A program made the position numbers and the translations under genes. The notes under the pieces were generated by a model. The model was not told where the DNA came from, did no database searches, and was given only the letters and a program-made list of their open reading frames with translations. A stretch of DNA of 64,000 nucleotides from an uncultured Saprospiraceae bacterium (GTDB lineage Bacteria > Bacteroidota > Bacteroidia > Chitinophagales > Saprospiraceae), in NCBI GenBank assembly GCA_964526645.1, contig CAZGJN010000013.1:2631-66630 (forward strand), in the 5' to 3' direction. Shown piece after piece: positions 9,427 through 38,213 of this stretch; position 1 is the first letter of the stretch, and every line of letters begins with the position of its first letter.

Positions 9427-9461
9427 TTTGCAATAGGCGAGGTTTTGTGCTCTGCAGACAG
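9427..9461 (+). repeat. intergenic repeat module M1, copy D (diverged)
   Basis: TTTGCAATAGGCGAGGTTTTGTGCTCTGCAGACAG. It shares GTTTTGTGCTC with copies A and C. Its TTTG..TA.GGCGAG prefix resembles 13355-13372 (TTTGGCGTAATGGCGAG). Confidence 0.45.
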
Positions 9462-9681
9462 TGAAAAGGAAAATAAAATGCACAATCCTGTGCGAAATTA
9501 AAAGAATTGCAAGCCGACACAAAAGCCAACGCTTTTAAGGCAACTTTTTATTTTGCCCGACTACACCCAAAGCCCACCCACCACCCTGACATTCAGTAGT
9601 CTGACAAATTTTTTTCCAAATTCCCGACCGTTTTGAGCGGCTCAACAGTCAAAAGGGTATCAACAACAAAAAGATACTCTT

Positions 9682-16568: not shown

Positions 16569-17504
16569 TTAGTTGGTATTAAAAATTGATTCCATCACTT
16601 TTTTGGGCGTTCGATTAATATAGAAAACACCCCAGTGTTTCTCTGGCTCAAGCGGTTCGGGAGAACCTTTCCAGGATTCATCAAAAGCCTCAAAGAAGAA
16701 AGTAGGTATATTTTGCGCTGCCGTCCAGCACATCAAGTCTTCATAATATATTTTTTGATTTTCTTCGCTGACGTGTTCAGGGGCAATTCCCCTTCCGTTT
16801 GAGTTTGTTGCCCAGCCAGCTTCCGTAATCACCACCGGCTTATCTGGGTACAGCTGAGCGACAGCATCGTAGTTTTCCTTCGTATACTCCAGCGATTCAT
16901 GGATTTTTTTGTATTCCCAAACAGGGTAGGTATGTATTGAAATAAAATCTACGACAGCAGCCAAGGGCTTTAATTTGCTTAGCCAGGGCACATAGTTTTC
17001 GCAATAGGTAATGGGTTGTTTCGTTACTTCCTTTACACTTTTTGCGTATTCAATGACTTGATTAACAGACACATAATGATCCGTCCAATCAACACAGGCT
17101 TCGTTACCCACGGAAAGAGAAAAAATTATTTCAGGGTACTGATTCGCGAGTTTTATGAGTTTATGAATTTTTTGGGCATTATTTCTTCGATTAAGGACTA
17201 ACTGTGCTTCCGAATACACGCCGCCGCCCCAGGGGCAGCCAAAATTGTTCATTTCCGCTTCGATATAAGCACCGAGCATAATCCTCAAATCCAGCTTTTC
17301 TTGTTTTATGACTTCCAGAACGGTTTCACTGTGCTGATCTACATCATAGAGCCTGAGGTATTTCCAATGAGGCTGCAACAACTGCAAGTCTTCTTTTACC
17401 TCATCATAAGTCGGATAGATTCCTCCTGGCATTTGCCCCTCTCGAAACCCCGAATAACATATCCCCTTCGCTGGCGCTAATCCTATAGCAGTAAAGGCGT
17501 TCAT
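16569..17504 (-). CDS. GH17-like beta-1,3-glucanase/transglycosylase, no signal peptide
   Basis: 'LSVGNEACVDW' (acid/base context) and 'VVITEAGWATNSNG' (nucleophile context). The start overlaps the upstream GH17 stop (ATGA). Confidence 0.7.
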   Translation of the reverse strand: MNAFTAIGLAPAKGICYSGFREGQMPGGIYPTYDEVKEDLQLLQPHWKYLRLYDVDQHSETVLEVIKQEKLDLRIMLGAYIEAEMNNFGCPWGGGVYSEAQLVLNRRNNAQKIHKLIKLANQYPEIIFSLSVGNEACVDWTDHYVSVNQVIEYAKSVKEVTKQPITYCENYVPWLSKLKPLAAVVDFISIHTYPVWEYKKIHESLEYTKENYDAVAQLYPDKPVVITEAGWATNSNGRGIAPEHVSEENQKIYYEDLMCWTAAQNIPTFFFEAFDESWKGSPEPLEPEKHWGVFYINRTPKKVMESIFNTN

Positions 17505-18406
17505 CTGTTTTGGAATTTTAATTTTTCATCTTTATCCCAAATCCCCCAGTAAGCACCAACCGTCCCTTCTGCACCTACTTTCCAGGATTCATCAAATGAA
17601 GAAAAATAGAATACTTCCACATCCTCGTCAATTGCCCACATTTGGGTATTAATAAAATAGGCCAGTGCGTTTTGTTCCGAAGGTATTGCGCCTTTCAGAT
17701 TTTCACCCTGGCTTGGCCAGCCGGTTTCTGTGATAATTACTTTTTTACCGTTTCCAGCCTCTACTGCTTGGCGATACATTTTTTTCAGATAATCCAGTGA
17801 ATTTTCGAATGGACAGCCTTCCCAAAACGGATAGCAATTAGCTAGGATCAAATCGCAGGCTTCCGTGATTTTCGGGCGATGAGAAAATTCATAATAGGCA
17901 TCTACATAACCGACCGGTATCTCCGGAATAGCTTGCTTCACCCGATAGATGAAATGCAACAGTTCTTCTTCCGATAAATCGTTTCGGTACAGTACTTCAT
18001 TTCCTACCGCGGCAATGTCAACCAGCCCTTCTTTTGCTAATTCAATCAAGCCGTTTGCTTCCCGTTCGTTTACTTGGGGGTCCTTGCCGAGCCATGCGCC
18101 AACCATCGTTTTTAAACCGAATTCTTTGGCAATTTTTGGAATAAGGTCATTATCTTCCGTACAGGAAAAGGATCGAACCCCTTGCGTATGCGGTTTTAGA
18201 ATTTGCATACGTCGTCTGATTTGTTCTGCCGAAATGTTATCGCCCGGTTTCTGCCCTTCTGCATACATGCTAAAGCAAAAGCCATGTACGCCATTATTTA
18301 AGATTTCGAGAAACAAATCTTGAATTTCCTCCTGGGAGACCCCAGCGAGGTAATGCTCTGTATTGACATTGGCCAGAGACTGGTATCGTTCTGCTCTATA
18401 AGACAT
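17501..18406 (-). CDS. GH17 beta-1,3-glucanase/transglycosylase, no signal peptide
   Basis: 'AAVGNEVLYRND' and 'VIITETGWPSQG' are classical GH17 motifs. 'FYFSSFDESWK' near the C-terminus. Confidence 0.85.
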   Translation of the reverse strand: MSYRAERYQSLANVNTEHYLAGVSQEEIQDLFLEILNNGVHGFCFSMYAEGQKPGDNISAEQIRRRMQILKPHTQGVRSFSCTEDNDLIPKIAKEFGLKTMVGAWLGKDPQVNEREANGLIELAKEGLVDIAAVGNEVLYRNDLSEEELLHFIYRVKQAIPEIPVGYVDAYYEFSHRPKITEACDLILANCYPFWEGCPFENSLDYLKKMYRQAVEAGNGKKVIITETGWPSQGENLKGAIPSEQNALAYFINTQMWAIDEDVEVFYFSSFDESWKVGAEGTVGAYWGIWDKDEKLKFQNR

Positions 18407-18422
18407 CTTATTTAGAATTTAA

Positions 18423-19853
18423 TTATAATTCACCTCTCCTGCTGACGAGTTCCTCTTTGATTTCGCGGGCTTTTTCTTCTGTCAAGTCATAGTTCCACAT
18501 TACCAAAATGGCTAATGCGGCTGTAATAGCAGGGATAGAAATATCCGCAAGCCGTAGTTTGATAATCGTATCTGCAGCCTGGATAGAGGCATTTTGATCA
18601 AACCCCACTACTTTCAGTACCAGGCCGCCCAACACCAGCGCCAGCCCTTGCCCCAGCTTCACCATCCACCAATAGATGGCTCCAAAAGTTCCTTCTTTTC
18701 TCGGCATGCCGTTGTTTAGTTCGTCCAGATCACATACATCCGCTGTCATTGACATCATAAGCGTGAACAAACCGCCGATTCCAAATGCGATCAACGGCAC
18801 AGGGATAAACATTAGCAAGGGATTTTCTGGAGAAAACCCCCACCATTTTAAAATATAGCCAACGATAGAAATGGCGGTAGAAATGATAAAAGCTTTTCGT
18901 TTGCCCCATTTGTTTGACATCCAGGTGATGATTGGGATAATCAAAAACGCGGTAGCGAAGGCGCTGATCGTGGAAAACCAGGCAGGCCAATTGCCTGCAG
19001 CTTCATATTGTCCATTAAATAAATAGAATACGATAATAAAATAGCTGAAAGATGCCACCATTTGAAAGCCATTAAATACCAGGAAGGTAGCGCCACAGAG
19101 TCGCATGAATGGCTTATTTTTTGCGATAAGTATCATGTTCCGAATCAAGCCTTTCATATTCTTCAGCAAATTTTTCAAAGTAATATCATCCCTGTTTTGC
19201 AGGTTGGTTTGATCTATTTCCTTACAAAATAAGGCTGGTAAAATACCCAGAAGTAGGCAAATCATCCCCACCACTAAAGAAAGTTTTTGCACCCCCTCTG
19301 CTTGGGTCTCAAATAAGTTTGGATTGGCAATAATCACCCAAAACCAGGGAACGATCATCCAGGCGATCTGGCTAATCGTTTGGGAAAAGCCCATCAGGCG
19401 GGTGCGTTCGTTGTAATCGGAGGTCATTTCATAGCCCAGACCAATCAGAGGCGTGGAGAAGATGGTATTCCCAGTCAAATAGATGATTGAAAAAATCAAA
19501 AAATACCAAAAATTGTATTGCTGAGAGTTTTCCGGGTTGAGCTGCCACAATAAGGCAAAAAACCCCCCGCTCAATATGGCGCCAGCAAAAATATACGGTT
19601 TTCTGCGCCCCCATCTGGATTTGGTATTGTCGGAGATATAACCCATGATTGGATCGGATATGGCATCGTAAATTCTTGGTAAGCCGCCGAGTAAACCTGC
19701 CAGAAAAGGATCCATCCCAAATGCAGTGAGTAGAAAAAATGAAAATATGCCCAAGGATCCGGGCAATAAATTATTTACCAGATGGCCGGCACCGAAAGCA
19801 GCTTTCTGAATTGCCGGTACTCTGTCTTTTGCTGCTGTTTGGTAATGTGCCAT
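18423..19853 (-). CDS. MFS/GPH-family (MelB-like) glycoside:cation symporter
   Basis: 12-TM profile. 'DAISDPIMGYISDNTKSRWGRRKPYI' is the GPH signature region. Confidence 0.85.
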   Translation of the reverse strand: MAHYQTAAKDRVPAIQKAAFGAGHLVNNLLPGSLGIFSFFLLTAFGMDPFLAGLLGGLPRIYDAISDPIMGYISDNTKSRWGRRKPYIFAGAILSGGFFALLWQLNPENSQQYNFWYFLIFSIIYLTGNTIFSTPLIGLGYEMTSDYNERTRLMGFSQTISQIAWMIVPWFWVIIANPNLFETQAEGVQKLSLVVGMICLLLGILPALFCKEIDQTNLQNRDDITLKNLLKNMKGLIRNMILIAKNKPFMRLCGATFLVFNGFQMVASFSYFIIVFYLFNGQYEAAGNWPAWFSTISAFATAFLIIPIITWMSNKWGKRKAFIISTAISIVGYILKWWGFSPENPLLMFIPVPLIAFGIGGLFTLMMSMTADVCDLDELNNGMPRKEGTFGAIYWWMVKLGQGLALVLGGLVLKVVGFDQNASIQAADTIIKLRLADISIPAITAALAILVMWNYDLTEEKAREIKEELVSRRGEL

Positions 19854-19858: not shown

Positions 19859-21358
19859 TTAATTTACTTGATTGAATACCACAGTTTGAAGCGCTTTTGC
19901 ACTAATTTTTGTATAAAAATCTTGCCCTTCCAGGTTTATTTTCAATAGTTTTTCTTGATCGCCCGGATTAAATACGATCATAGCGACAGAGCCATCTGTA
20001 TTTTTGGCGGCGGTTATCATCAAGTCTTTGTCGGGGTTTTCAAAACCGATCCGAACGGCATCGGGGCGAATGAATTTGCTGAAATGCGCCATTGTGTAAT
20101 AGAGCGGCGTGAAATAAACGGCATCATTTTCGGGGTCTACGATAACCGGCGCGACGCACCAGTTTTTGAACCAGTTGGGCCCGCCTTGTCTGTCCAACAC
20201 CATATTCCAGTCAATCCAACCATCAACATAATTGTTGAGGCAGCCAATAATATCCCGCGCATAACGGAACACCGGCACGTATTTCGGGTGCAGGTATTTT
20301 TGATTTTCGGGTGCCCAGTCCCAGCCCCAATCTGTTGCTTCTTTGCTCCAATACCAGGCATCGTCGTTCCATTTGGGCACTTCTGCATCTACACATGCTT
20401 CCGTTTGAATTAGGTGTTTGTCGGGTGCCTTTTTGTGTGCATATTGCAGGGCATCTGGAAAATAATCGTAGGTGCTTTCGTACCAATGAATGGCTGTACC
20501 GGCAAAATATTTTGCCGTGTTTTCGTCCTTAAACATTTCGTCCACCCAAGCTTTCAGTTCGGCTCGGTTTTGGTCGTAGCCTAATATTTTTACACCTGCC
20601 AAGCCTTCCTGTTCCAACTTAGGGCCCAAGTAATACTGAACAAAATCGGTCATTTCCTGAGGTGTGAAGAGCATGCTCTCCCAGTTGTCACCATTGCCAT
20701 GCGGTTCGTTTTCCACAGTAATTCCCCAGATATCAATGCCTTCTTTTTGATACGCTTTTATGTATTTTGAAAAAAACAGCGCCCAAGTTTCGCGGTATTC
20801 CGGCAATAATTTTCCACCGACCCAGTGCTTGTTGTCTTTCATCCAGGGTGGTGCTGTCCAGGGTGAGGCAATAATTTTGAACCCGGACTTGGATACCGCT
20901 TTGGCTTTTTTTATCATCGGAATTAGATCTTCTTGATCCTCTTCAACAGAAAAGTGCTCAAGGGCTTTGTCATCAGGAACCGGCGCATAGGAATATTGCC
21001 CTAACGAAAAATCGCAGGAATTGATATGTGTTCTGGTCAATGAATAATTAGCGCCTGCCTCGCTAAAGTAAGCCTCTATTATTTTGGACTGATTTTCTTT
21101 GCTGAGCCGATTGAGCAAGTAAGCCGAGCTCTCTGTGAAAGCGCCGCCAAAACCAAGGATTTTTTGATAGGTTTCTTCCGGTTTTACCACAATTTCCAAA
21201 GCAGATGACGCAGCTGCGGCGGCTTTTAGTTCTTGCAGTTTGTTTCCTCCTGCAGCCGTTTCATAAATGACTGCATGCCATATTTTTTTTGAAGAGTTAC
21301 AATGTACGACCACGATACTTAGCACGAGTATGAATAAAATTTGTTTTATACGCATCAA
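19859..21358 (-). CDS. GH30 glycosidase (beta-1,6-glucosidase/glucosylceramidase-like), secreted
   Basis: Signal peptide with Cys ('VVVHCNSS'). 'WGITVENEPHG' (acid/base) and 'HLIQTEACVD' (nucleophile) are GH30-type motifs. Confidence 0.85.
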   Translation of the reverse strand: MMRIKQILFILVLSIVVVHCNSSKKIWHAVIYETAAGGNKLQELKAAAAASSALEIVVKPEETYQKILGFGGAFTESSAYLLNRLSKENQSKIIEAYFSEAGANYSLTRTHINSCDFSLGQYSYAPVPDDKALEHFSVEEDQEDLIPMIKKAKAVSKSGFKIIASPWTAPPWMKDNKHWVGGKLLPEYRETWALFFSKYIKAYQKEGIDIWGITVENEPHGNGDNWESMLFTPQEMTDFVQYYLGPKLEQEGLAGVKILGYDQNRAELKAWVDEMFKDENTAKYFAGTAIHWYESTYDYFPDALQYAHKKAPDKHLIQTEACVDAEVPKWNDDAWYWSKEATDWGWDWAPENQKYLHPKYVPVFRYARDIIGCLNNYVDGWIDWNMVLDRQGGPNWFKNWCVAPVIVDPENDAVYFTPLYYTMAHFSKFIRPDAVRIGFENPDKDLMITAAKNTDGSVAMIVFNPGDQEKLLKINLEGQDFYTKISAKALQTVVFNQVN

Positions 21359-21563: not shown

Positions 21564-24500
21564 TTAACACAACAAATGATCCTGGTTTATAAATACATTT
21601 ACTTGCTGAATCGCGCCACTCCTACTCCATATTTTCCTGCTGACTTCCGCGTTCAAAAGCAACTGTTCAGACTGTTCAATTTGCCCGTTTTCATAAAGTA
21701 TCGAGAGCCCTTCTTGCTCGGATAGGATATAAATTACCGGCACCTGGCAATAGGTAAAAAACAAGGCGTTCGCGCCTACAACAATTTGTCTGGACGTGCC
21801 GCTTATATCGAAATAGCCGATAGTTTTGGGCGATTTTAAGAATTCATTTTTCTGTAGTAAGCTGGGTTGCAAGTGTAGTTGCCCGTTTTGTACCCGAACG
21901 CCCAATTCGCCGAGCCTGCATAAAATATCCTCCTTCACTTGTCCAGTCATACCAGGTTGTTGAGCACCTTTGCCAAGCGGCGTGTGGGAATAAGGGTCGG
22001 TAGGAAAGGCACCGTATAATTCCGGCGATTTGTGAACACCAATCCCTTCCGCGATCTCGTAGTAATGAGCCAGTAGCTTTTTAACTAATGCCTCGTCAGC
22101 TTGTTCCGTTTGGGCATTGATGATCGTTTCCAGCACAGCCAACCGCAGTTTGGACACCATGTGCCAATAGATAGAACCTAAGCCTTCGTAACCGAAGAAT
22201 GTTCCACTTCTTCCGGTGAAAGCTTTGTGGTGGAACACCGCTTCGAAGAGTCGGAGCAAGGCATCTTTGAGTGCTGGCTCTGCCCCCTGTACATCGTCCA
22301 GCGCAGCTTCCAGATCGTTTGCATTTCTGAAGTTTCCATTAAAATGATAATTCCCTAAAACATCCTTTTCAAGGATCGTGGCATAGTTGTTATTCGAAAG
22401 TTTTTCCAAAATCTCGTATTGAGCTAATAGTTCGCTGGAAATCGTATTTTTTTGCAAAAAACCAGGTAATTGTTTGTTTGGATAAAGCATGTAGCTGTGC
22501 TGGTCGCTTCGGTACATTGAGCTCGATCTTAGCGCTTCCAATAGTTTCAAACTTGCCTCCACAGAAAGACACCATGCGCTGAGTGCGGCTACTTGCCCTT
22601 CCAGCATTTCGTTCAGATGAGCAACCGCAACGAAATCATCGCCCGATGACATTAAATTGTATCCATGATACAGGTGATCCTGTCGTTGATTGGCCTTTAT
22701 CGAATGAGTGATAAATGTAAGTGAAAGCGATACAAACTGGCGCAATCCATCCAGATCAATGGCGCGCTTCGTTCCACCGAACCCCTGTTCATAGACCTGC
22801 CAACGGAAATCGCTGGCGGCATGACCCAAGCGATCTAATAGCTTTTTGCGCTCATAATCGCTGATTTTTCCATTCAGCAAGGCTTGATTTTCCAGCAGTG
22901 CATAACCTATCTGGGTGTAGCATTCCGCCAACTCGTCGGAGATGTTTACCTGCTCCAGCTTAGTTTGCATAAGCAGTTTATCAAAAAACTGCATAAACCG
23001 TCTTAAATAATACAGGGTAACCATGGACACACCGTTTCCGACCAGCGCATTGTTCGCGTCGTTCCACTCTGGCCGTTGCGTATTCATCCAGATGCCCCCT
23101 TCTGGTATAAAGTTGGAGAGCTTTGAGAGCGTAATAGCCAGTATTTTTTCCACCAGGTTTACATGCAGCACCTGTCCATTTTTATCCTGTAGCAAAGCGC
23201 CATCCGCCCCGAGTTCACTTCTTTGCACCCTGATCTTTTTATCCAATTCAAAATCAAACGCTATCGTATCTTTTGGATTTTTGAGTATATCCCGATAGGG
23301 TTTAATCTTGTAGGGCACATTTGCATACACCAAATATTCTTTATCTAAAAGGTTGGGTAGCAGTTCTGGGTAGTAGTTGGACGCGAATTCCAAAAATTTC
23401 AACAGGTAAATAACCTGGTGATCCCCCCAATATCCGATATAAGACCAGGGGTCATCGTGCTCTATGACTTCCCAGTCGAAGCCATCCTTTGTCACCCGAT
23501 ATGGATTATAACCATCGAATGTGGAAGCGTTGAGAAATTTAAAAATCATCCCCTCGATAAAGGCAGGATAAGAATGGGCAAGCGCTTCCCAGTTTTGAAA
23601 GATATCGCGCCAATTTCCCTCGTAGTCCAGTATCTTGGAACCATCCACCTCACTTCGGGTATTGATTGAGAACTTATTCCAGGGGCGAGAAGGATCGCCG
23701 TGTCTTCGGCTGAATTTTAAAGGCAGGTATTCCGTATTTAGTCGGATAAAATCGGGGTCTTCACTATCCTGCAACTGTGTTTTTAACACTTGCAAGGGGA
23801 ATTTGTCCGGCAGTAGCCGCAGCGCTTCCTTGTGATTGGCAAAAACGAGGCGATTTGCATTTTCCAGGTATTTGAGGAAATCCCACCGTTCTATTTGGTA
23901 GTTCTCATCAAAAATCCCGCCACGCATGATATTGAACAACACATTTGAAAAGTGACGGGAGTCGCGGAGTGCATCTTCACTATACTGCAATCCATCAGCG
24001 GCAGCAACCAATTTTACCAGATTTTCGGTACCCAGTTCGATGTCTTCTCTAATGCGCTTGCTCAGATCGGTATTGCTTTTTATGGTTTCAACCAGGCTTA
24101 TGATAGCACTGTGATTTTGATTCACATTTGCAACCAACATCCACTCTTTTTCAGTACCTGGCGGGAGTTCGATTGTAGCATGTACAAAGTAAGCTCCTTT
24201 CTCGCCTTTTACATCAACCTCCTGCGTGATGTTTTGACAAGCTCGGAATCTTTTTAATTGCAACGAAGACAATAAGTATTGCGGCTTTTCCAAGCCAATT
24301 GAAAATGCCACATTAGCGCGGAGGGCTTCGCTTGGCTCGGCTTTATCAACAATAATGGCGCTGAGCGCATAAATACCCAAGCCCGATTCTTGCTCCAATT
24401 CGCTGCGCTTATAGGCATCGGTCAAATTGCTGGCGCTGTTCTGAAGGTCACTATTCACACCACACGGAACGATATTCTGGATGCCGTCCAGTACAATTAT

Positions 24501-24986
24501 TTTCTGATAATCGTTGGAATGGTTGATCAGTTTGGATTTTTTTACAAAACCAAATACATCGCTGGAATTCCACTGGTACTGAAAAGTTAAACCTAAATCA
24601 TGGTTGATCTCTTCAAATAGGATTTTGTTATTGTAGGCGCTTTTATACAAATTTCTTTGTATGATAAATTTTCCTGCACCGCGAAAAGAAAACGGCTCCC
24701 AAACTACAACTTCATTTTTCTTCAACACCTGAAAGATAGATTTGCTGCCAGTATTTTCTGCCGACTCCGTAATCTTATCATCGGTGTAATAGGGGAATAA
24801 AGCATATTCAGCGTTTTTTCTACCTGCGGTTAGGCCCCCATTGCTGGAAATAAACATCCAGTGATTGGAATCACTGACGATACTCATAAAAAACGGACGC
24901 AGTTCGTCTATATCCGAAATCTTATAAAATTGTTCCCCATTGATTTTTACAAAACTCAATTTTATGTTTGCCCTTTCTTGTTTCAT
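21564..24986 (-). CDS. large cytoplasmic glycoside-phosphorylase-like protein, candidate beta-1,3-glucan phosphorylase (GH149-like)
   Basis: 1140 aa with no signal peptide. 'QRPEWNDANNALVGNG' (around nt 23046-23075) resembles the DWND catalytic-Asp motif of GH94-clan phosphorylases as I recall it. Size and laminarin-locus context fit GH149. Confidence 0.5.
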   Translation of the reverse strand: MKQERANIKLSFVKINGEQFYKISDIDELRPFFMSIVSDSNHWMFISSNGGLTAGRKNAEYALFPYYTDDKITESAENTGSKSIFQVLKKNEVVVWEPFSFRGAGKFIIQRNLYKSAYNNKILFEEINHDLGLTFQYQWNSSDVFGFVKKSKLINHSNDYQKIIVLDGIQNIVPCGVNSDLQNSASNLTDAYKRSELEQESGLGIYALSAIIVDKAEPSEALRANVAFSIGLEKPQYLLSSLQLKRFRACQNITQEVDVKGEKGAYFVHATIELPPGTEKEWMLVANVNQNHSAIISLVETIKSNTDLSKRIREDIELGTENLVKLVAAADGLQYSEDALRDSRHFSNVLFNIMRGGIFDENYQIERWDFLKYLENANRLVFANHKEALRLLPDKFPLQVLKTQLQDSEDPDFIRLNTEYLPLKFSRRHGDPSRPWNKFSINTRSEVDGSKILDYEGNWRDIFQNWEALAHSYPAFIEGMIFKFLNASTFDGYNPYRVTKDGFDWEVIEHDDPWSYIGYWGDHQVIYLLKFLEFASNYYPELLPNLLDKEYLVYANVPYKIKPYRDILKNPKDTIAFDFELDKKIRVQRSELGADGALLQDKNGQVLHVNLVEKILAITLSKLSNFIPEGGIWMNTQRPEWNDANNALVGNGVSMVTLYYLRRFMQFFDKLLMQTKLEQVNISDELAECYTQIGYALLENQALLNGKISDYERKKLLDRLGHAASDFRWQVYEQGFGGTKRAIDLDGLRQFVSLSLTFITHSIKANQRQDHLYHGYNLMSSGDDFVAVAHLNEMLEGQVAALSAWCLSVEASLKLLEALRSSSMYRSDQHSYMLYPNKQLPGFLQKNTISSELLAQYEILEKLSNNNYATILEKDVLGNYHFNGNFRNANDLEAALDDVQGAEPALKDALLRLFEAVFHHKAFTGRSGTFFGYEGLGSIYWHMVSKLRLAVLETIINAQTEQADEALVKKLLAHYYEIAEGIGVHKSPELYGAFPTDPYSHTPLGKGAQQPGMTGQVKEDILCRLGELGVRVQNGQLHLQPSLLQKNEFLKSPKTIGYFDISGTSRQIVVGANALFFTYCQVPVIYILSEQEGLSILYENGQIEQSEQLLLNAEVSRKIWSRSGAIQQVNVFINQDHLLC

Positions 24987-25053: not shown

Positions 25054-25905
25054 TCAGTTTACTTCCCGATAGGCGCGTACATAATCTATCGTCATCTGTT
25101 GTGGAAATGGTGTTTGTGAGGTCGGAAATCCTACATAATTTCCACCTACTGCTACGTTCAAAATGATGAAAAAAGGACGGTCAAACACCCATTCGCCAGA
25201 CAGATCAGCTGGGGTGATGCGTTGATACAATGTTTCATCAACAAAATAGTCAATATAATCTTCGCCCCACTCTATGGCAAAAAGGTGAAAATCGGTATCA
25301 AATCGCATATTCGTGTATGAAAAGCTTTGAGTAATGGCAGCTCCGCCTGAGTACCCCGGGCCATGCACAGAACCATTGATGATATTGGGTTCTTGTCCTC
25401 GCAATTCCATAATATCAATTTCCCCACATTGCGGCCAGCCCTCCGTATCAATATTGTCACCAAGCATCCAGAAAGCCGGCCATAAACCTGGACCGTAAGG
25501 CGTTTTCAGCCGGGCTTCAATTCTACCGTAAGCTTGTGTGAATAGCCCTTGGGTTTTTATACGAGCCGATGTAAACGGGGCACCGGCAAATGTTTCTTTT
25601 TTAGCCGTGATTATCAGGTTGCCTTCTCCATCCAATGCCACATTTTCGGGGCGATTCGTGTAATACTGCAATTCCTGATTTCCCCAGCCATTACTTCCGG
25701 TGCCGATGTCATAAGTCCATTTCGCTGGATCAGGTGAGACGCCGGCAGTTCCGGTGAAGTCATCGCTCCACACCAGTTGCCAGTTGCGTTGCTCAAGCAC
25801 CTGTTCTTCATCTGCTTCACAACCAGATAGACTGAGAAGTAAGCCGGCTGATAGGATGCTGATGGAAAAACGGCTATACATAGATTTTGGAATATAATAC
25901 TTCAT
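25054..25905 (-). CDS. GH16 endo-beta-1,3-glucanase (laminarinase) lipoprotein
   Basis: Lipobox 'LSLSGC'. Catalytic 'GEIDIMELRG' (ExDxxE). 'WPAFWMLG'. Confidence 0.9.
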   Translation of the reverse strand: MKYYIPKSMYSRFSISILSAGLLLSLSGCEADEEQVLEQRNWQLVWSDDFTGTAGVSPDPAKWTYDIGTGSNGWGNQELQYYTNRPENVALDGEGNLIITAKKETFAGAPFTSARIKTQGLFTQAYGRIEARLKTPYGPGLWPAFWMLGDNIDTEGWPQCGEIDIMELRGQEPNIINGSVHGPGYSGGAAITQSFSYTNMRFDTDFHLFAIEWGEDYIDYFVDETLYQRITPADLSGEWVFDRPFFIILNVAVGGNYVGFPTSQTPFPQQMTIDYVRAYREVN

Positions 25906-25947: not shown

Positions 25948-28314
25948 TTAGTTATGGAAATACAAATTATCCACATAAATAGTATTGGCGCCAGTAGGTC
26001 GTCCAACCAAGATAAACTGGGCGATATGGTTTCGGGTAGTAAGCCCGATGAAGTCGCTCAAGGGTATATCATAACTGATCCATTGCCCGGTGGCTGGCAT
26101 ATTGAAGTTGACTTGATGCTCTACATCATCACCGCCACCAAAGGCACCATTCGCACCAAAATCAACCAATTTTAGACCGAAAAAGCTAAAGTCTGCTGAC
26201 CAAACATCAATATGAAAATGCGTCATGCCGGCTGCGTTAATCTGGTTGGCTACCGTTTCGATACCTACAAAATCAAGGGTAGTGTATTTTTTCACAGCAT
26301 TGCCGGCTATGGATACATCTTCAAATGTAGCAGATGACCAACCCGTACGCCAGGTATCAACCGGTACATTGTTATAAACCTCGCTAAAAAGCGAAATAAC
26401 ATTTGCTTGAGGAAGCGTGGGTGCGGGCGCGGCTACTGCCGGCACTGTGGCACTTCCCTCCTTATAAAAGAAAATATTGTCCAAATAAATAGTACCGTTT
26501 CCATCAAACTTCATCTGAAAAATGTCAGCAAGGTTCACTCCTGCAAAAGCGGACAGCGGAATATCAATGCTAGACCATCCGGTGGTAGGCACAGGCAGTG
26601 TGTATGCCTTTTCCTTTGGGCCAGGGCTGATCAAGTAAACGTTGAGCGAAGAAGAATTGGCAGTCCATACATCGAGGTGGATATAATCCATCTCGGAAAC
26701 GTTCTGGCTGCTGCCCAATTGGATACCTTGGTAATTTAGTCCGCTATATTTCAGAGTATTGTTACCGGCGATCAATTCCTGGGTGACAACAGTAGCCTGC
26801 CCCCAATTGGGGTTAAAATCCGTACCGGGGATATTTGCATAAGCATCACTGAAAATGGAAAGGACATTCGCTGGATTTTTAGTGGGCGTAGGCGCAGCAA
26901 CGACTGGGTTATTATTGCCTTTATCATAGAAATAAATGTTGTCCACAAAAAGATTGGGTAAATCGCCCGATAAGACGATTTGAGCCAGGTGTGCCCTGGA
27001 GTTTAGCCCAGTGAAAGCAGAAAATGGGATATCTAAACTTATCCAAGATTCGGTTGCCAGCATAGCGCGGTTGATCGTAATTTCATGCGACGAATCATCG
27101 CCTCCGCCAAACGCTCCGTTCGCACCGAGGTCGAATAAAAGTACTTTGAATACCGTGGAAGTACCAATCAGATCAGGTGTCCAAATGTCCATGTGAAAAT
27201 GAGTCATGCTGGTCGCATTGATCGTAGGTGCCGTAAACTGGATGCCTACAAAATTCAGTTGGGTATAGCGCTTGACATCATCTCCATTTATCTTTATATC
27301 AAAAGTTTGGGCAGTGGAGAATTGCCAATAACCGTTAAAAAAATCAACAGGAACGTTATCATAGACATTGCTAAAAACGGAAATCACCTTATCTTTAGGT
27401 ACCAACGGAATTGGAGCAGCCACCTGCGGTAAAATAGGTGCTCCTTTCGATACGATCGTCAGCGAACCTTCCGATTTTACTCCAGCAAGAGCAGCGCTGA
27501 TCACGGCTGTGCCAGCATCCATTACTTTTACGACACCAGCATCGCTTACACTGGCTACGCTGGTATTCGTTGATGTAAAATCAAAATAACCAGGTGCCGC
27601 TTCTACCCGTTGGTCTACACCATTTGGCAAGTTAGCCAGCACATAAGCCTGCAGGGTAAAGGAACTGCCAGTCTCCGCGTTTTCAGTTACATCCTCCCCG
27701 TTCAGAATGCCAGAGCGCAGGTGCGCGATTGTCCCCAGGTTTTCAAACTGCACTTCATCAAGCCAAAAGGTATATCCTCTGCCGTCTTCAGGACCTTCCG
27801 AGAAAAACAGCAAGCCCCGTTCGCTCAAGAGCTTGGAAGGGTCTGGTATCGGTATGTAATATTTTTTCCAATTTGTATTCAACTTCAACCCGTTAATGGC
27901 AGCTTGATATTTGTTTTCTCCCAGATCGTTGCCAAATCCGATAAGGTCTATCGAAGCCGATTTGGAGGCTTTTGCCCAAAAGGTCAGCACATTATAACCA
28001 GAAAGGTCACGCCCTTTATTGCTGAAATATACCCCACCAGCATAGGCACCGGCAGGATCATCAAAATCCGGAACGGCTATCCGCATAGAGGACGTACCTT
28101 TGTATTTTATCTCGGTGTCTACATCGAAAGCTCGTACATCGGAACCGCCAAATGCGGCATAGTTCATATCAGAGCTAAAGCCATCTATAAAAACTTCGGC
28201 GGTGGTGGGATATGTTGCGGGAACCAATTCGTTCAAATCCCTTTCACAGCTCAGAAAAAGCAGTGTGTAAGCCGAAAAAATGATGATAATTAAGTAGGAA
28301 TATGTATGTTTCAT
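25948..28314 (-). CDS. surface glycan-binding lipoprotein (SusE/F-position SGBP): N-terminal CBM-like module, Big_2-like domain, three tandem CBM-like repeats
   Basis: Lipobox 'LLFLSC'. Ig-like 'SVASVSDAGVVKVMDAGTAVISAAL'. Three ~150-165-aa repeats each begin 'V(I/L)S(V/I/L)FS(N/D/E)(V/A)Y.N(V/I)P' and end 'DN(I/L)(Y/F)F(Y/H)'. Confidence 0.65.
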   Translation of the reverse strand: MKHTYSYLIIIIFSAYTLLFLSCERDLNELVPATYPTTAEVFIDGFSSDMNYAAFGGSDVRAFDVDTEIKYKGTSSMRIAVPDFDDPAGAYAGGVYFSNKGRDLSGYNVLTFWAKASKSASIDLIGFGNDLGENKYQAAINGLKLNTNWKKYYIPIPDPSKLLSERGLLFFSEGPEDGRGYTFWLDEVQFENLGTIAHLRSGILNGEDVTENAETGSSFTLQAYVLANLPNGVDQRVEAAPGYFDFTSTNTSVASVSDAGVVKVMDAGTAVISAALAGVKSEGSLTIVSKGAPILPQVAAPIPLVPKDKVISVFSNVYDNVPVDFFNGYWQFSTAQTFDIKINGDDVKRYTQLNFVGIQFTAPTINATSMTHFHMDIWTPDLIGTSTVFKVLLFDLGANGAFGGGDDSSHEITINRAMLATESWISLDIPFSAFTGLNSRAHLAQIVLSGDLPNLFVDNIYFYDKGNNNPVVAAPTPTKNPANVLSIFSDAYANIPGTDFNPNWGQATVVTQELIAGNNTLKYSGLNYQGIQLGSSQNVSEMDYIHLDVWTANSSSLNVYLISPGPKEKAYTLPVPTTGWSSIDIPLSAFAGVNLADIFQMKFDGNGTIYLDNIFFYKEGSATVPAVAAPAPTLPQANVISLFSEVYNNVPVDTWRTGWSSATFEDVSIAGNAVKKYTTLDFVGIETVANQINAAGMTHFHIDVWSADFSFFGLKLVDFGANGAFGGGDDVEHQVNFNMPATGQWISYDIPLSDFIGLTTRNHIAQFILVGRPTGANTIYVDNLYFHN
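25951..27426 (-). repeat. three tandem in-frame coding repeats (CBM-like modules) inside the 788-aa lipoprotein gene
   Basis: R1 is aa ~297-465 (nt 26920-27426), R2 is aa ~470-618 (nt 26461-26907), R3 is aa ~626-788 (nt 25951-26439). R1 and R3 share the 'D(L/F)GANGAFGGGDD' insert that R2 lacks. Confidence 0.7.
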
Positions 28315-28339: not shown

Positions 28340-31300
28340 CTACTGAAAAATGTTGATTTGTATATATGTCCTGATTTCCCATTCGTTACCGTTGCCATAA
28401 CCTGGCGCATTCGGGTTGCATTCCATTTCACCGGCTGCATTGAGAAAATGCGTTGGGCAATAGCGCGGAGAGTATTTATCCAGGGTACGATAGATGCCCT
28501 GAACCCCTATTTTTGTGTTGGGCAGTTCAAGCCAGTTTGGTTTGCCCAGGGCGGTAGAGATATCCAGCATAAATTGCTGTGGGAAAGTAAGGTTGAAATC
28601 GCGATGGTAATCGTAGGGACCCCAATCATTTATTTTTACGGCAGAGACCAGTTTGACATTTTTATAAACCATGCGCAAATCAACTCCGAAGCGCTGAATG
28701 GTACGCGCATCGTCACCATTTGCTTGGGCGTTCCCAATGTAGGCATTTGCGATGAATCCCAGATCAGGGTTCAACTTGGACACGATACGCGTATAAGCTT
28801 CCCATAGGTCTTGGGCAGGGGCAGAGCCAGGAAAGGCAAAGGTCGTACGGCCATCGGGTAGGATACCGATGGCTGCGTCCTGGATGGTTGGCAAATGCCG
28901 GAATACAAACCCTGCACTTACCGCCAGCCTGGCATCTTCGGCTTTGTCATTATCCCATTCATACATCCAAGTGGCGGGTGTTGGGTCGTAGGTGATGAGG
29001 AGCTCCCCGGCCACCGTTTCGCGGTTTGATCGTACAGAGAAAGGGTCATCCAGGATATTTCGGGGTCTGGCGGGTGCCTGCACATCGGCGGGTATAGGGT
29101 CTTCAATCGGGCGTTGCCACAAAAAATTAGGCGCTAATTGAAAATCGCCAATCCCGTAGGTAAACCCAGTAAGGAAGTTATATTGATTTCCGCTTCCGCT
29201 GTCTTTTAACCGCCAACCGGTAAAAGTTTTAGTATAATCAGCACCGCCATTTGCTACCAGTGCCATAGCAGCAGCTTGTGCATACCAGTTAATTCTTCCC
29301 TTTGTAAATGTCAACTTCACCTTTCCGCCCCAGTTGTCCTCGGGCTTAATTTTATCTTGGTAGATTGTATAATCCCCCTTTGATCCATCAACGATCTGAA
29401 AGGTTCTGCCTATGAGGGGATCTCCCCCCCAGATTCCACCTAATTCGATACCCAGGCTACCCACTTTTGTTTTTGCATGCAGGGTTGCTCTGCGCGTCTT
29501 TGGCACCGGTATCGCAAAAGAGCTTTCTGTTGTACCGCGTTGTTCTAAGTCTTCATGGAAAATTCCGGTCAGGTCAATGCCCCCCAGTGTCCGGCTGTAT
29601 TTAACCAAAATAGCAGGGTTAGCACCCCACCACAGTTCGGGACCCATGGCAATACTCAATCCTTTGAGTTTCCGCTTGCCGTCCAACTCAAATCCCAGCG
29701 GCGCTTGACCATTGTAAATGTCAATGTTGGGCCCATAATTTGCTTCTGGATACAATCCGAAAAAATCACCCTCGTAGCCCCAGTGGTAATGACCAGTCCT
29801 GTAAAATCCTGTAAGATCAAAATCTTTGTGATTCCAGGTGATATCAGCCCTATATACTTGTAAGCGGTTGACATCGCGCAACTCGACTGGCCCATTGTTT
29901 GTGTTCGCTACCACTGTGCGCCCCCGATTTTCATAAAATATTTCGTTGATGGGGTTTTGTGCCACATTGCCCAAAACGTTTACCTCCACATTTGCTCGCA
30001 GGTTGGGGGCTGGATTCCCCGCCACGCCTACAAAAAAGGATTGCATGTGATCAAATCCTAATTGGTTGGGAAATACTTCCTTTTCAGGATCAGCCTCCTT
30101 CGGTGTGGATATTAAGCTACCACCTGTATTAAATGTAGTAATTTCAGCGCTCAAGCGGCTGAGCCGGATTTTGCCAGTTTGCTCGCTTTCCAGGGCGGCC
30201 TTGTCGCCCCTGGCTTTTACAACAGCGTCCATCAATTGGATTTGCTCAAAATATTGGTTGACAGCTTCGGAAGTAGCGCCCTCACCATAGGGCTTGAAGG
30301 CATGTACTTCCTGCAAGGCGTAATAGGCGGCGCGAGGGTATAAATGGTAAAGACCACGCTCATTCGTAGGCCCTTTGGCGCATATACCAAACCATTCTTC
30401 GTTCATGTTATTCTCGCCTGGCTCATAATCGTTGAGATAACCCCCATTTGACCAGGAGGCATTGTTGTCGTGTACATCCAGGTTGCTGGTTTGACCAAAC
30501 TTCCACCAGCCATCGCTAAATTGGAAAGTAAACCCACCGATAGAATTTTCTGCTTTCCCCAAGCCTGCGGCGTTTTCATATATTTCTTTCCAATTACCAA
30601 CAAGGTAGTGGGCTTGCGCTTGCTGGTCTTCACTATTAGAAAGGGCATTAAAGGCATCTGAGCCAAACTCCGTAAACATAAGGGGCTTGCCATATTCTTT
30701 TCTCACCCGCTCAAAGGCATCCCCAAACGAAAGGCCGCGGTACATATTGACACCCAATATATCCACATCCGGGCACCGCCGCGCGATAATATCCAAAAAC
30801 AGCAGATCGCCGTTGCAAATAGCAATTGGATGCGACCCATCAATACCTTTCATTTGTTGCACCGCTTCATTGAATAGCTGATACATGGCTTCCGCTCGGA
30901 TGGTTGACTTTCGGTCTTCCTGGGGGATATCTTCTGTTTCAGCTCCATCCCAAAAAAGCCCGTAGTTGTTTTCATTACCCAGCAGGTATAGCAAAAGCCC
31001 GGGTGTATCCTTGTATTCCTGGGCCATTTCCTGAACCTCGCGCATTAAAAGCGCCCGCACCCGCGGATCGGCGTACTCTGTATTACCGACCCAAGCGCCA
31101 TCCAGCGTAAGCCCATAACGCCCAAACGAGTGGTTGAGCACAGTGTATATGCCGTATTTTTTATAGATATAACTTATCCATTTAGCTGGCACTCCTGTGT
31201 ATTGCCGTATGGCGTTTACGCCCATGTTCTTGAGCATAGACATTTCCTCATCCAGCGCTGCCCTGATAATATCGTCCGATTGTTTCCAAAGACTATAATT

Positions 31301-31477
31301 GAAGTTGGTGCCAATAGGAAAATAGTCCCAGTTCATACCATTAATCATGAAATCCCTTCCATCTACCTGTAATTTCATGCCTTGACCTTGTTGTACTACG
31401 GAAATTTTTTCCGTTTGCGCATGAAGCGTTATTGCCCATAACAGCAATCCTGAGTATAAGAGTAGATTTTTCATCAA
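28340..31477 (-). CDS. fusion protein: secreted clan GH-A (TIM-barrel) glycosidase domain plus a ~600-aa predicted outer-membrane beta-barrel
   Basis: Signal peptide 'LLLWAITLHAQ'. 'LYLLGNENNYG' (E169) and 'PLMFTEFGSD' (E270) are typical retaining GH-A acid/base and nucleophile contexts. From about aa 440 there are long runs of alternating amphipathic strands ('RLAVSAGFVFRH', 'FGVDLRMVYKNVKLVSAVKI', 'KIGVQGIYRT') ending '...EIRTYIQINIFQ'. Confidence 0.6.
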   Translation of the reverse strand: MMKNLLLYSGLLLWAITLHAQTEKISVVQQGQGMKLQVDGRDFMINGMNWDYFPIGTNFNYSLWKQSDDIIRAALDEEMSMLKNMGVNAIRQYTGVPAKWISYIYKKYGIYTVLNHSFGRYGLTLDGAWVGNTEYADPRVRALLMREVQEMAQEYKDTPGLLLYLLGNENNYGLFWDGAETEDIPQEDRKSTIRAEAMYQLFNEAVQQMKGIDGSHPIAICNGDLLFLDIIARRCPDVDILGVNMYRGLSFGDAFERVRKEYGKPLMFTEFGSDAFNALSNSEDQQAQAHYLVGNWKEIYENAAGLGKAENSIGGFTFQFSDGWWKFGQTSNLDVHDNNASWSNGGYLNDYEPGENNMNEEWFGICAKGPTNERGLYHLYPRAAYYALQEVHAFKPYGEGATSEAVNQYFEQIQLMDAVVKARGDKAALESEQTGKIRLSRLSAEITTFNTGGSLISTPKEADPEKEVFPNQLGFDHMQSFFVGVAGNPAPNLRANVEVNVLGNVAQNPINEIFYENRGRTVVANTNNGPVELRDVNRLQVYRADITWNHKDFDLTGFYRTGHYHWGYEGDFFGLYPEANYGPNIDIYNGQAPLGFELDGKRKLKGLSIAMGPELWWGANPAILVKYSRTLGGIDLTGIFHEDLEQRGTTESSFAIPVPKTRRATLHAKTKVGSLGIELGGIWGGDPLIGRTFQIVDGSKGDYTIYQDKIKPEDNWGGKVKLTFTKGRINWYAQAAAMALVANGGADYTKTFTGWRLKDSGSGNQYNFLTGFTYGIGDFQLAPNFLWQRPIEDPIPADVQAPARPRNILDDPFSVRSNRETVAGELLITYDPTPATWMYEWDNDKAEDARLAVSAGFVFRHLPTIQDAAIGILPDGRTTFAFPGSAPAQDLWEAYTRIVSKLNPDLGFIANAYIGNAQANGDDARTIQRFGVDLRMVYKNVKLVSAVKINDWGPYDYHRDFNLTFPQQFMLDISTALGKPNWLELPNTKIGVQGIYRTLDKYSPRYCPTHFLNAAGEMECNPNAPGYGNGNEWEIRTYIQINIFQ

Positions 31478-31929
31478 CTTTCCTTGATTTAACTAACTAT
31501 TCTGCGAAAATAGCCAATGGGAAAATGAAATTTTTTGATTCTGTGAATTTAAAGTTTTTAATTTGAATTTTGCATACATACTTTCGATATACAACATTTC
31601 ACCCTCCCTGAAAGGCAACACAAAATCAACACTAATTCGCTGAAAATAAATTCTTTGTAAGCGTTTCACTATACAGTAAAAGTAGTATGCATGTATACCG
31701 ATTTTCAAGCACGGCCGTGTTCTTTTCTGAAGCGGCAAGTACTGAAAAGTAGTGCTGCGGATAGGAAGCGTGCAAGTACCCTCAGGACACTAAACCGGTA
31801 GGTGGCTTGTGCTTGCAGGCATCTCCTCCATAATTTTCATCGTCTCCACGCTCACGGTCGTGACGCGCTGAATCAGATCCATCACTTGTTATTTATAATC
31901 TGTAAACCGGTAGATGAGATTTTTCTTAG

Positions 31930-32260
31930 ATCTTTGGGAGGTTGCCGATGAAGCTAAAAGACCCCGGCACCCTCCTGGACGCTGCTGCCGTGTTAGACAC
32001 CTTTGATGGGAAAAAAGCTTACAAATTGGGCGTTCGGTACGATGTAGCAGTGGGTAGTGATGTTTGTTTATTTCGATGCCATGACTTTCGCCTTGATCGG
32101 CTACCGTTTTTATCACGATGAGTCAAAAAATGACGGAGAGTACATTCTGCTTTCGGGAGAAAAAACCATCAATGGTATGCGCTTGCCGAAAGTGCGGAAA
32201 TGGTACACCCATCAGGCAGATAAATTTCTTGGAACGGACACCTTAGTGAGCGGGCAATAG
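31930..32260 (+). pseudogene. frameshifted C-terminal remnant of a conserved hypothetical protein (I believe DUF6503-like)
   Basis: Frame 1 reads IFGRLPMKLKDPGTLLDAAAVLDTFDGKKAYKLGVRYDVAVGSD. The sequence shifts frame near 32057-32062 and continues MFVYFDAMTFALIGYRFYHDESKNDGEYILLSGEKTINGMRLPKVRKWYTHQADKFLGTDTLVSGQ. There is no N-terminal half and a TAG lies at 31927. Confidence 0.45.
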
Positions 32261-32296
32261 TGCCAAACCGATTTGATACCGGCATTGAATACCGCA

Positions 32297-38063: not shown

Positions 38064-38213
38064 AGCTATTGTATTCTGATGATAAATAATAAGAAATTGA
38101 CACTGGATGACAGTTGCGCCTTAAAAGTGAGCTTTTTGCAGAATTTTTTCAACAATTCTTTTGACGTAGCGTATGTTTGTAAGTACACATTTTTTTGCAA
38201 AAAAAAAATTCTG

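Follow-up and report, generated by a model that had tools for sequence, protein, structure and literature searches.

A predicted outer-membrane barrel with a tethered GH158-like glycosidase in the importer slot of a Saprospiraceae β-1,3-glucan operon

A 64,000-nt stretch of DNA from an uncultured Saprospiraceae bacterium (GCA_964526645.1, contig CAZGJN010000013.1, positions 2,631–66,630 of the forward strand; hereafter the window) carries a gene that joins a glycoside hydrolase (GH) domain to a predicted outer-membrane β-barrel. The resulting fusion protein is probably the outer-membrane gate of a β-1,3-glucan operon, a TonB-independent channel with a tethered glucanase resembling families GH158 and GH157. 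Enzyme–barrel fusion and a lipoprotein unlike SusD here occupy the importer slot of a complete BguR-regulated operon, an arrangement shared by the genomes of at least 77 further Bacteroidota species, with relatives in hundreds more.

The gene is a single open reading frame (ORF) at 28340..31477 on the minus strand, 1045 codons long when counted from a TTG and ending in a stop codon at 28340–28342, while translation of the plus-strand frame over the same interval is full of stops and gives no ORF. Because codon 2 is an ATG at 31474 and homologues begin MK..., the protein probably comprises 1044 residues, with the TTG at 31475–31477 not acting as the start; residues are numbered here from the ATG, so that E169 and E270 of an earlier model-generated reading of this sequence (the original prediction) become E168 and E269. 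The cleavable signal peptide proposed in that reading is apparent as a type I signal peptide, MKNLLLYSGLLLWAITLHA followed by QTEK, with no lipobox cysteine.

Residues 20–395 are predicted to form an intact retaining glycosidase of clan GH-A, an assignment resting on a TIM-barrel model, on matches to GH158 and GH157, and on an invariant catalytic set. In a full-length AlphaFold2 (AF2) model built on a 75-sequence alignment, residues 24–390 alternate between strands and helices as in a TIM barrel. The GH-A motifs pointed out in the original prediction (LLGNENNYG, MFTEFG, NMYRG and GFTFQFSDGWWK) are all present, and R90, H115, N167, E168, Y245, E269 and W323 are invariant in an alignment of 75 homologues, a set of R, H, N-E, Y, E and W being the hallmark of the clan. 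Foldseek places TIM barrels of GH158, GH157 and GH2 at the top with probability 1.00, the best match in the Protein Data Bank (PDB) being the Bacteroides uniformis endo-laminarinase BuGH158 (6pal, E 2.5e-15), accompanied by LaGH157 (9fz9) and GH158(Pro) (9oro, 9p25) and followed by GH2 glucuronidases; the nearest structures to the modelled enzyme are thus endo-β-1,3-glucanases. In the GH158 structures GNEN (E168) and TEFG (E269) are matched by GNE and TEWG/TEFG. Identity to GH158 is 14% in structural alignment, and by sequence the family is reached at E 5e-4 with phmmer and at E 6e-4 to 1e-6 with profiles, the last of these values in a profile search against the PDB. Judged by these alignments, the closest characterised relatives are enzymes that cut β-1,3-glucan, and the domain could belong to GH158 as a remote clade or constitute a GH-A family of its own. 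In alignment the strand ISVVQQG..KLQVDG at the N-terminus pairs with the equivalent N-terminal strand of soluble BuGH158, and is for this reason taken as part of the GH fold and not as a TonB box. A loop of ~40 residues that hardly varies among homologues (..WWKFGQT.NLDVHDNNASWSNGGY..NNMNEEWFG, residues 320–363, window ~30386–30517) is nonetheless modelled with a predicted local distance difference test score (pLDDT) below 50, and may be a gating loop or a surface contacting the barrel.

The names under which such proteins are deposited, ‘glycoside hydrolase family 2 TIM barrel-domain containing protein’ and ‘beta-galactosidase’, are not supported. A Pfam scan of the fusion protein found no Glyco_hydro_2_N or Glyco_hydro_2 domain, Glyco_hydro_2_C was borderline at 21.4 bits (cutoff 21), and the NCBIfam β-galactosidase model reached 22 bits where its cutoff is 1284. 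Across the two halves of the protein Pfam yields this borderline match on the enzyme and no model for the barrel.

Residues 436–1044 are predicted to represent a new family of large outer-membrane barrel. A second AF2 run, on residues 400–1044 with a diverse 101-sequence alignment (23–90% identity), produced a closed barrel with pLDDT 83.9 and a predicted template modelling score (pTM) of 0.81. DSSP resolves about 26 antiparallel strands of 7–18 residues in it, and the count is given as 24–26 because two short hydrophilic strands at residues 691–708 could be an external hairpin. The strands are long and amphipathic, alternating hydrophobic and polar residues. A Foldseek search with this model gave 345 PDB matches at E<=1e-3, and the best 50 of the 345 are nearly all outer-membrane barrels, together with a few engineered proteins whose fold is unstated. 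TonB-dependent transporters (BtuB, OprC, PfeA) lead, and Campylobacter MOMP, OmpF, the FimD usher, LptD and MtrB are also among them, at template modelling (TM) scores of 0.18–0.38 in these best 50, so that none is close; the full-length model retrieves GH structures only. The soluble β-sandwich, Ig or carbohydrate-binding module (CBM) folds that might have accounted for the C-terminal ~600 residues were discarded on the strength of the closed barrel and its outer-membrane matches, and the membrane barrel that the original prediction had read from alternating amphipathic strands and the ending ..TYIQINIFQ is supported at the level of a model. In that ending phenylalanine is next to last; distant homologues end in ..YFF, ..ISY, ..LSF or ..YSF, and of 176 aligned rows 83 have phenylalanine as the final residue and 50 as the penultimate one. 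The protein thus appears to combine the features of outer-membrane proteins: a Sec signal peptide, a closed amphipathic barrel, short turns with long loops, and a C-terminal β-signal aromatic.

Profile libraries do not recognise this barrel. Neither Pfam nor NCBIfam matches it in the target or in seven distant homologues (Pfam gives nothing even at E<=1), and sequence and profile searches of the PDB return no match at E<=10. Pfam finds no Plug, CarboxypepD_reg or TonB_dep_Rec domain in the fusion protein, although the same scan detects them in a TonB-dependent receptor of the window and in the SusC proteins of three related loci (L027, L066, L073), and no autotransporter or POTRA domain either. 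The absence of a plug or TonB-box-like segment, remarked upon in the original prediction, agrees with these scans and with the N-terminal strand belonging to the GH fold. These missing domains, together with gene context, suggest a diffusion channel that operates without TonB.

The linker between the two domains stops three residues short of barrel strand 1 and is modelled with low to moderate pLDDT. It is conserved within Bacteroidota, with A421, R422 and G423 invariant in the 75-homologue alignment. By the standard barrel-radius formula 24–26 strands correspond to a C-alpha diameter of ~45–48 Å, larger than that of a 22-strand TonB-dependent transporter, and a barrel this wide would have to be occluded; candidates are its long loops, the linker helices and the partner lipoprotein encoded next door, with which the fusion presumably forms a complex. 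The long loops total ~220 residues and are conserved, and two of them, YRTGHYHWGYEGDFFGL (residues 558–574) and DDPF.V..NRE...TYDPTP.TW.Y.WDN..EDA (residues 809–848), are largely invariant even in standalone homologues of 25% identity. In the proposed mechanism the constriction that sets specificity would be made by conserved aromatic loops, YHWGYEGDFFGL among them.

The fusion is widespread. A search over 5.8 billion proteins returned more than 5,635 homologues at E<=1e-3, the best 120 of which measure ~1018–1079 aa, are 69–100% identical to the target, and come from Saprospiraceae, Haliscomenobacter, Lewinella/Neolewinella, Flavilitoribacter and Bacteroidales. Over 75 homologues mean column identity is 74% and runs continuously across the domain junction. 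Scanning one genome per GTDB species gave at least 593 confirmed matches, and the best 80 of these, taken for locus analysis, are all from Bacteroidota and all fused, with a median length of 1045 aa. Cultured carriers include Flavobacterium degerlachei DSM 15718, F. terrisoli, Cloacibacterium rupense, Lewinella sp. W8 and Neolewinella lacunae, and named homologues are restricted to diderm lineages (Bacteroidota, Gammaproteobacteria, Desulfuromonadales, Rhodohalobacter). That separate glycosidase and porin genes were run together by a frameshift or an assembly error, a concern raised in the original prediction, is scarcely credible in view of single full-length ORFs in independent assemblies and cultured isolates across phyla, fusion in 80 of 80 genomes, more than 5,600 matching proteins and unbroken identity across the junction; the opposite is seen in a few relatives (L007, L050, L065), whose fusion gene is broken into two ORFs.

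An exhaustive HMMER search with the barrel alone as query collected 524 clusters at 50% identity, in which the barrel occurs either fused (~1000–1100 aa) or alone (~575–620 aa). Variants include P0126 (1351 aa), with two tandem GH domains before the barrel, and P0265 (1218 aa), in which a CBM4_9 module precedes the fusion. The barrel-alone forms appear genuine, since P0241 has its own signal peptide leading directly into strand 1, with no linker, and ~50 such proteins cluster in Gammaproteobacteria. Four independent gammaproteobacterial contigs (Marinobacterium sp. and three metagenome-assembled genomes, MAGs) place the standalone barrel in operons with LacI and an SBP_bac_5 oligosaccharide ATP-binding cassette (ABC) importer, three of the four with one or two GH16 genes and sometimes GH1. 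Outer-membrane passage would seem to be the only function missing from these operons, and this is the main ground on which the barrel is read as a glucan-oligosaccharide channel and not as an anchor. The opposite separation is seen in one locus (L055, 7225–8481), where a barrel-less GH copy of 418 aa, 72% identical, whose signal peptide is of type I and which has neither a lipobox nor space for a secretion domain at its C-terminus, lies directly upstream of a full-length fusion; it may be either a functional soluble paralogue or a duplication remnant.

Gene neighbourhoods were compared by calling ORFs in the 80 loci, many of them on incomplete contigs, and labelling these by BLAST against the window proteins. 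The gene following the fusion encodes a homologue of the 788-aa lipoprotein of the window in 77 of the 78 loci with downstream sequence, and companion genes were found for GH16 (68 of the 80 loci), GH149 (50), BguR (49), GH17 (47), GH30 (41) and the MFS transporter (38). Where present, the BguR homologue usually lies directly upstream of the fusion, and the overall order is BguR, fusion, lipoprotein, GH16, GH149, GH17, GH30, MFS. Hidden Markov models (HMMs) of SusC and SusD, built from Pfam-verified sequences and applied within 10 kb, revealed a SusC+SusD pair, oriented like the fusion, in three of the 80 loci (L027, L066, L073), and no SusC/D in the remaining 77; SusD matches were obtained in 3 of 86 loci, each beside a true SusC. 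Other large neighbours of SusC size were dismissed by eye, unscanned, as their N-termini resemble RND-efflux or UvrA proteins, and the 788-aa lipoprotein shows no SusD-like features, Pfam giving CBM11-like and Big_2 domains only. A SusC/D pair is normally absent from fusion loci, yet able to coexist with the fusion. Homologues thus co-occur with GH16, GH17 and GH30 at the frequencies given above, in a set of loci of which 77 of 80 lack SusC/D, and the converse idea, that a SusC/D pair always accompanies them, fails. The placement in the slot where SusC/SusD normally sit, as originally proposed, stands for BguR-regulated laminarin-type loci, but it is not exclusive, as the three exceptions keep the pair.

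These exceptions bear upon the proposal that the barrel is a mere anchor or scaffold for the enzyme and the lipoprotein, oligosaccharides entering through unlinked TonB-dependent transporters or porins. Such an arrangement would account for SusC/D genes retained in the same cluster and might draw on the TonB-dependent receptor of the window (825 aa, with CarboxypepD_reg, Plug and barrel), which lies 6.6 kb from the fusion. The receptor, though, is encoded on the other strand beyond housekeeping genes (aminotransferase, VWA, LPG-synthase-like, RecJ), has no SusD-like neighbour, and is probably unrelated to glucan uptake. With 77 of the 80 loci free of SusC/D within 10 kb, with 24–26 strands and invariant aromatic loops far exceeding what an anchor needs, and with the same barrel enzyme-free in LacI/ABC/GH16 operons, we consider a purely structural role improbable.

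Which side of the outer membrane the enzyme occupies was judged mainly from barrel topology. DSSP shows connections that alternate between 2-residue turns (ten, plus others of 3, 6, 12 and 21 residues) and loops of 7–36 residues. In all substrates of the β-barrel assembly machinery (BAM) the C-terminal strand ends in the periplasm; given an even strand count, following the alternation of short turns and long loops back from the C-terminus puts the start of strand 1, and with it the linker, on the periplasmic side. The enzyme would then most simply be periplasmic, beneath the channel exit, a location we modestly prefer to the cell surface, and one in which the N-terminal domains of LptD, PgaA, BcsC and TonB-dependent transporters likewise lie beneath their barrels. 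The preference is strengthened by the standalone barrels, which need no helix in the lumen, by the plain type I signal peptide of the barrel-less copy in L055, and by the operon otherwise having no signal-peptide-bearing β-1,3-glucanase to shorten chains for the MFS transporter (its GH17 and GH149 enzymes have no signal peptides). The ‘surface glycosidase’ of the original prediction is accordingly not supported by the topology, whereas other components of its ‘enzymatic porin’ (the fusion, a predicted barrel, a context in which SusCD is replaced) are retained.

A surface-displayed enzyme sitting on its own channel, exported in the manner of an autotransporter with helix 414–432 in the lumen, cleaving glucan where the channel opens and feeding its products inward, is the less likely arrangement, though not a far-fetched one. 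The succession of N-terminal enzyme, hydrophilic helix of ~30 residues, 3-residue turn and strand 1 mirrors the type Va layout as generally understood, a CBM4_9 or a second GH domain extends the N-terminus of some homologues, and barrel fusion would be one anchoring route in Proteobacteria; characterised GH158 enzymes of Bacteroides polysaccharide utilisation loci (PULs) are treated in a paper on ‘cell surface glycosidases’ (PMC7157763). Set against this are a barrel of 24–26 strands where such autotransporters have 12, without any Pfam autotransporter match, and an operon whose GH16 is already likely to be at the surface and which would then have no β-1,3-glucanase in the periplasm. A fast-folding 45-kDa TIM barrel is moreover a poor autotransporter passenger. 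Standalone barrels work with neither helix nor passenger, making a lumen that must also hold a helix the less parsimonious solution, and the barrel-less copy with its plain signal peptide counts against surface display as well.

Transport in the opposite direction was also weighed. Exopolysaccharide secretion porins consist of a periplasmic N-terminal domain followed by a C-terminal barrel, and the fusion might by this likeness be an export porin for self-made β-glucan, comparable to PgaA, BcsC or PelB, with a trimming hydrolase attached. No glucan synthase, glycosyltransferase or co-polymerase occurs in 89 loci, however, and the conserved neighbours are all catabolic enzymes, importers or their regulators (GH16, GH30, GH17, GH149, MFS or ABC with a substrate-binding protein, BguR/LacI/GntR), which renders export very improbable.

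Several considerations weigh against the favoured interpretation of the fusion as a channel with a periplasmic glucanase. Channel activity, substrate and localisation are inferred from sequence, predicted structure and context. The likeness to GH158 is remote, so that a β-1,3 specificity of the enzyme would lean largely on gene context. Full-length modelling reaches a pTM of only 0.54, as against 0.81 for the barrel alone, and its unreliable inter-domain geometry neither places the GH domain nor shows how the pore is occluded, while a barrel of 24–26 strands needs an occluder. The three loci with SusC/D beside the fusion indicate that it need not be the sole importer. Finally, the enzyme–helix–turn–strand layout fits surface display too, and the CBM4_9 of P0265 and the second GH domain of P0126 would be more usual in enzymes acting on extracellular polymer.

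As originally described, the fusion is the first gene of its operon and lies directly upstream of the lipoprotein and GH16 genes, at gaps of 25 bp (fusion to lipoprotein) and 42 bp (lipoprotein to GH16); gaps throughout this minus-strand operon range from -4 to 205 bp. Its features are collected in Table 1.

Table 1. Features of the fusion gene, its operon and a nearby receptor, in window coordinates
Feature	Position	Strand	Basis
Signal peptide, aa 1–19 (MKNLLLYSGLLLWAITLHA, cleaved before Q)	31418..31474	minus	sequence; homologues with MK.. start and hydrophobic core
Clan GH-A (β/α)8 glycosidase domain, aa 20–395	30290..31417	minus	AF2, Foldseek, profiles, invariant residues
Putative acid/base E168	30971–30973	minus	alignment with GH158
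Putative nucleophile E269	30668–30670	minus	alignment with GH158
Linker, aa 396–435, charged helices ~402–410 and 414–432, ..LMDAVVKARGDKAALESEQ..	30170..30289	minus	DSSP of both AF2 models
Predicted outer-membrane β-barrel, aa 436–1044, 24–26 strands	28343..30169	minus	AF2, Foldseek, amphipathic strands
Partner lipoprotein, 788 aa, ..LLFLSC/ERDLNE	25948..28314	minus	Pfam CBM_11 30.3 bits, Big_2 weak; lipobox
GH16 laminarinase-type lipoprotein, ..SLSGC/EADEEQ	25054..25905	minus	Pfam Glyco_hydro_16 E 2.7e-24; acidic after lipobox
GH149 β-1,3-glucan phosphorylase, no signal peptide (cytoplasmic)	21564..24986	minus	NCBIfam NF058639, 1727 bits
GH30 lipoprotein, ..VVVHC/NSSKK, no acidic export motif	19859..21358	minus	Pfam Glyco_hydro_30 E 1e-79
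MFS_2 (GPH-type) inner-membrane sugar transporter	18423..19853	minus	Pfam MFS_2 E 5.5e-65
Two GH17 genes, 17501–18406 and 16569–17504, 4-bp overlap, no signal peptide	16569..18406	minus	Pfam Glyco_hydro_17
BguR-type one-component regulator, 942 aa, Y_Y_Y and GerE/LuxR	13403..16231	minus	Pfam
Upstream region, 822 bp, no ORF >=100 aa, presumed promoter and operator	31475..32296	minus	ORF calling
TonB-dependent receptor	38079–40556	plus	

Acidic residues immediately after the lipid-modified cysteine mark surface-exported lipoproteins in Bacteroidota; because they are present in the 788-aa lipoprotein and GH16 and missing from GH30, the former two are probably at the surface and GH30 in the periplasm. 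The GH17 and GH149 enzymes, having no signal peptides, apparently finish β-1,3-oligosaccharides in the cytoplasm. Taken together with the favoured periplasmic position of the tethered enzyme, these locations would allow the following route. The 788-aa CBM lipoprotein and GH16 would capture and nick the glucan at the surface, and the fragments would pass through the barrel passively and independently of TonB, past its conserved aromatic loops. At the exit the tethered GH-A domain would shorten incoming chains to a size the MFS transporter can take and sustain a steep inward gradient, GH30 would debranch the fragments, the MFS transporter would import the products, and breakdown would be completed by the cytoplasmic GH17s and by GH149 phosphorolysis.

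The 788-aa lipoprotein, a putative surface glucan-binding protein or lid, comprises a CBM11-like N-terminal domain that only just exceeds the CBM_11 threshold and three internal, Ig-like repeats of ~155 aa, and relatives have one repeat (467 aa, L006) or three (781 aa, L002). A different partner accompanies the fusion in Oleiphilaceae, a Desulfuromonadales MAG and one further contig, where it is followed by a lipoprotein of ~210 aa and then a GH149-sized protein, surrounded by GH16, GH30, GH17, and MFS or ABC genes, with no adjacent TonB-dependent receptor. These small lipoproteins (L003, 13003–13629; L004, 13117–13764; L005, 7547–8209) share 41–49% mutual identity, have a helix-rich look, and show no homology to the 788-aa lipoprotein by BLAST (best E 0.058). 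Neither lipoprotein has a PDB match, and the ~210-aa protein has none in Pfam. By analogy to LptE and LptD, the ~210-aa lipoprotein could act as a lid or plug. In L003, a contig of 1.58 Mb, a giant ORF of more than 4,171 aa (1–9985), with multiple GH16 and CBM domains, directly precedes the fusion.

The Y_Y_Y/GerE regulator has the architecture of BguR, a one-component regulator that spans the membrane, encoded immediately upstream of SusCD in laminarin PULs (bioRxiv 10.64898/2026.01.10.698779). In the window its gene shares the strand of the operon and lies at its 3' end, and in most relatives directly upstream of the fusion, often divergently. A tandem direct repeat, TTGATGAAAT-N2-TTGATGAGGT, is found 100–165 bp upstream of the fusion in relatives (L021, L053, L057, L064 and others), an exploratory motif search giving at least one copy in 26 of 74 upstream regions, and the upstream region of the window contains GTGTTGATTTT/GTGTTGCCTTT at about -150; repeats of the TTGATGAAAT/TTGATGAGGT type are candidate operators for the BguR-type regulator. 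In the window the MFS gene is followed after 16 bp by GH17, and the two form a single ORF in L032, L060 and L065, the kind of fusion known from Formosa (PMC6246565), so that enzyme and transporter appear from gene structure to be fused at both membranes.

Laminarin and related β-1,3-glucans are among the largest organic carbon fluxes of the ocean and are abundant, too, in soil, in sludge and in the biomass of fungi. At present SusC/SusD, the pair on which PUL-prediction pipelines key, is equated with glycan uptake in Bacteroidota, and the fusion operon contradicts the assumption that Bacteroidota PULs import through SusCD. Should the channel interpretation be correct, surveys that rely on SusCD count too few glucan degraders (among them Saprospiraceae, Chitinophagaceae, freshwater Flavobacterium, and those Gammaproteobacteria with the standalone barrel), a new barrel family that lacks a Pfam model and any structural relative beyond TM 0.38 acquires a function, hydrolysis is covalently coupled to outer-membrane passage in a form testable in cultured strains, and ‘GH2 TIM-barrel protein’ and ‘beta-galactosidase’, as used in public records, are misleading names. 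Searches of the open full-text literature, including a 2026 review of glycoside transporters, the 2026 GH158 structure paper and papers on laminarin PULs, turned up no description of a GH–barrel fusion or of this barrel family (subscription-only papers lay outside the scope of the search). The opinion that the architecture belongs to no recognised family agrees with this outcome and with the Pfam and NCBIfam scans of the barrel.

A bolder and rather doubtful extension would make the fusion and its dedicated lipoprotein a third, TonB-independent class of glycan import beside SusCD and simple sugar porins. Its wide barrel would admit long laminarin chains, and the tethered, possibly processive GH158-like enzyme, situated at the exit on the periplasmic side, would act as a hydrolysis ratchet that draws the polymer inward and retains the products, the energy of the glycosidic bond replacing the proton-motive force that TonB delivers; GH158(Pro) has been described as endo-processive (PMC13195107). 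Such a ratchet would be widespread, given at least 593 matches in the one-genome-per-species set and occurrence in Bacteroidota, Proteobacteria and Desulfuromonadales.

Comparison with known systems begins with the SusC/SusD-type TonB-dependent importers of Bacteroidota PULs, such as those for laminarin in Formosa agariphila and Bacteroides uniformis, which occupy the same locus slot, as first structural gene beside a BguR-type regulator, keep the same companions (GH16, GH17, GH30, GH149, GH158-like), and likewise consist of a large barrel gene with a lipoprotein gene directly downstream (here in 77 of 78 loci), TonB-dependent transporter barrels also being the top Foldseek matches. The fusion differs in lacking CarboxypepD_reg, Plug, TonB_dep_Rec and a TonB box, in a partner that is not SusD-like, in having 24–26 strands instead of 22 with TM <=0.38, and in its fused enzyme. 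With LamB/ScrY, the chitoporin ChiP, CymA and KdgM/NanC it shares a TonB-independent barrel within a polysaccharide operon and conserved, aromatic-rich internal loops, and its standalone homologues sit beside an ABC importer dependent on a substrate-binding protein and LacI much as LamB does in the mal regulon. Those channels, however, have 12–18 strands and no fused glycosidase, compared with 24–26 strands and ~610 aa here, and no match to the LamB/ScrY, OprB, KdgM or ChiP families of Pfam was obtained even at E<=1.

For the enzyme, GH158 (BuGH158 6pal, GH158(Pro) 9oro) and GH157 (LaGH157 9fz9) share the clan GH-A fold, the aligned NE and TE(F/W)G glutamates and a setting in β-1,3-glucan loci, and are separated from it by ~14% identity (profile E 1e-6), by the conserved loop at residues 320–363 and by the barrel. 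The type Va and Vd autotransporters EstA, PlpD and NalP have the same order of parts (signal peptide, enzyme, helical linker, barrel), with 12 strands or with 16 strands and POTRA, whereas the target barrel is about twice as large, has neither autotransporter nor POTRA domain, and exists as a gene of its own in catabolic operons. LptD, a 26-strand barrel found among the Foldseek matches, has a dedicated lipoprotein, LptE, paralleling the one encoded next to the fusion, and LptD, PgaA, BcsC and PelB all have a periplasmic N-terminal domain, the placement modestly preferred here; the fusion departs from them in its catabolic context, in having no OstA/LptD or TPR domains, and in a presumably inward direction of transport. 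A conceptual precedent is the MFS-GH17 protein of Formosa sp. Hel1_33_131, which joins a transporter to a β-1,3-glucanase and was called an undescribed kind of fusion between a transporter and a carbohydrate-active enzyme (CAZyme) by Unfried et al. 2018 (PMC6246565); it belongs to the inner membrane where the present barrel is predicted for the outer, and its enzyme comes from a different family. (The ‘porin’ mentioned in the same study is an unrelated nitrogen-cluster protein.) Judged by sequence and context, the fusion as a whole seems to belong neither with SusC nor with the known sugar channels, autotransporters or LptD, and to work most like a substrate-specific sugar channel placed in the SusC position.

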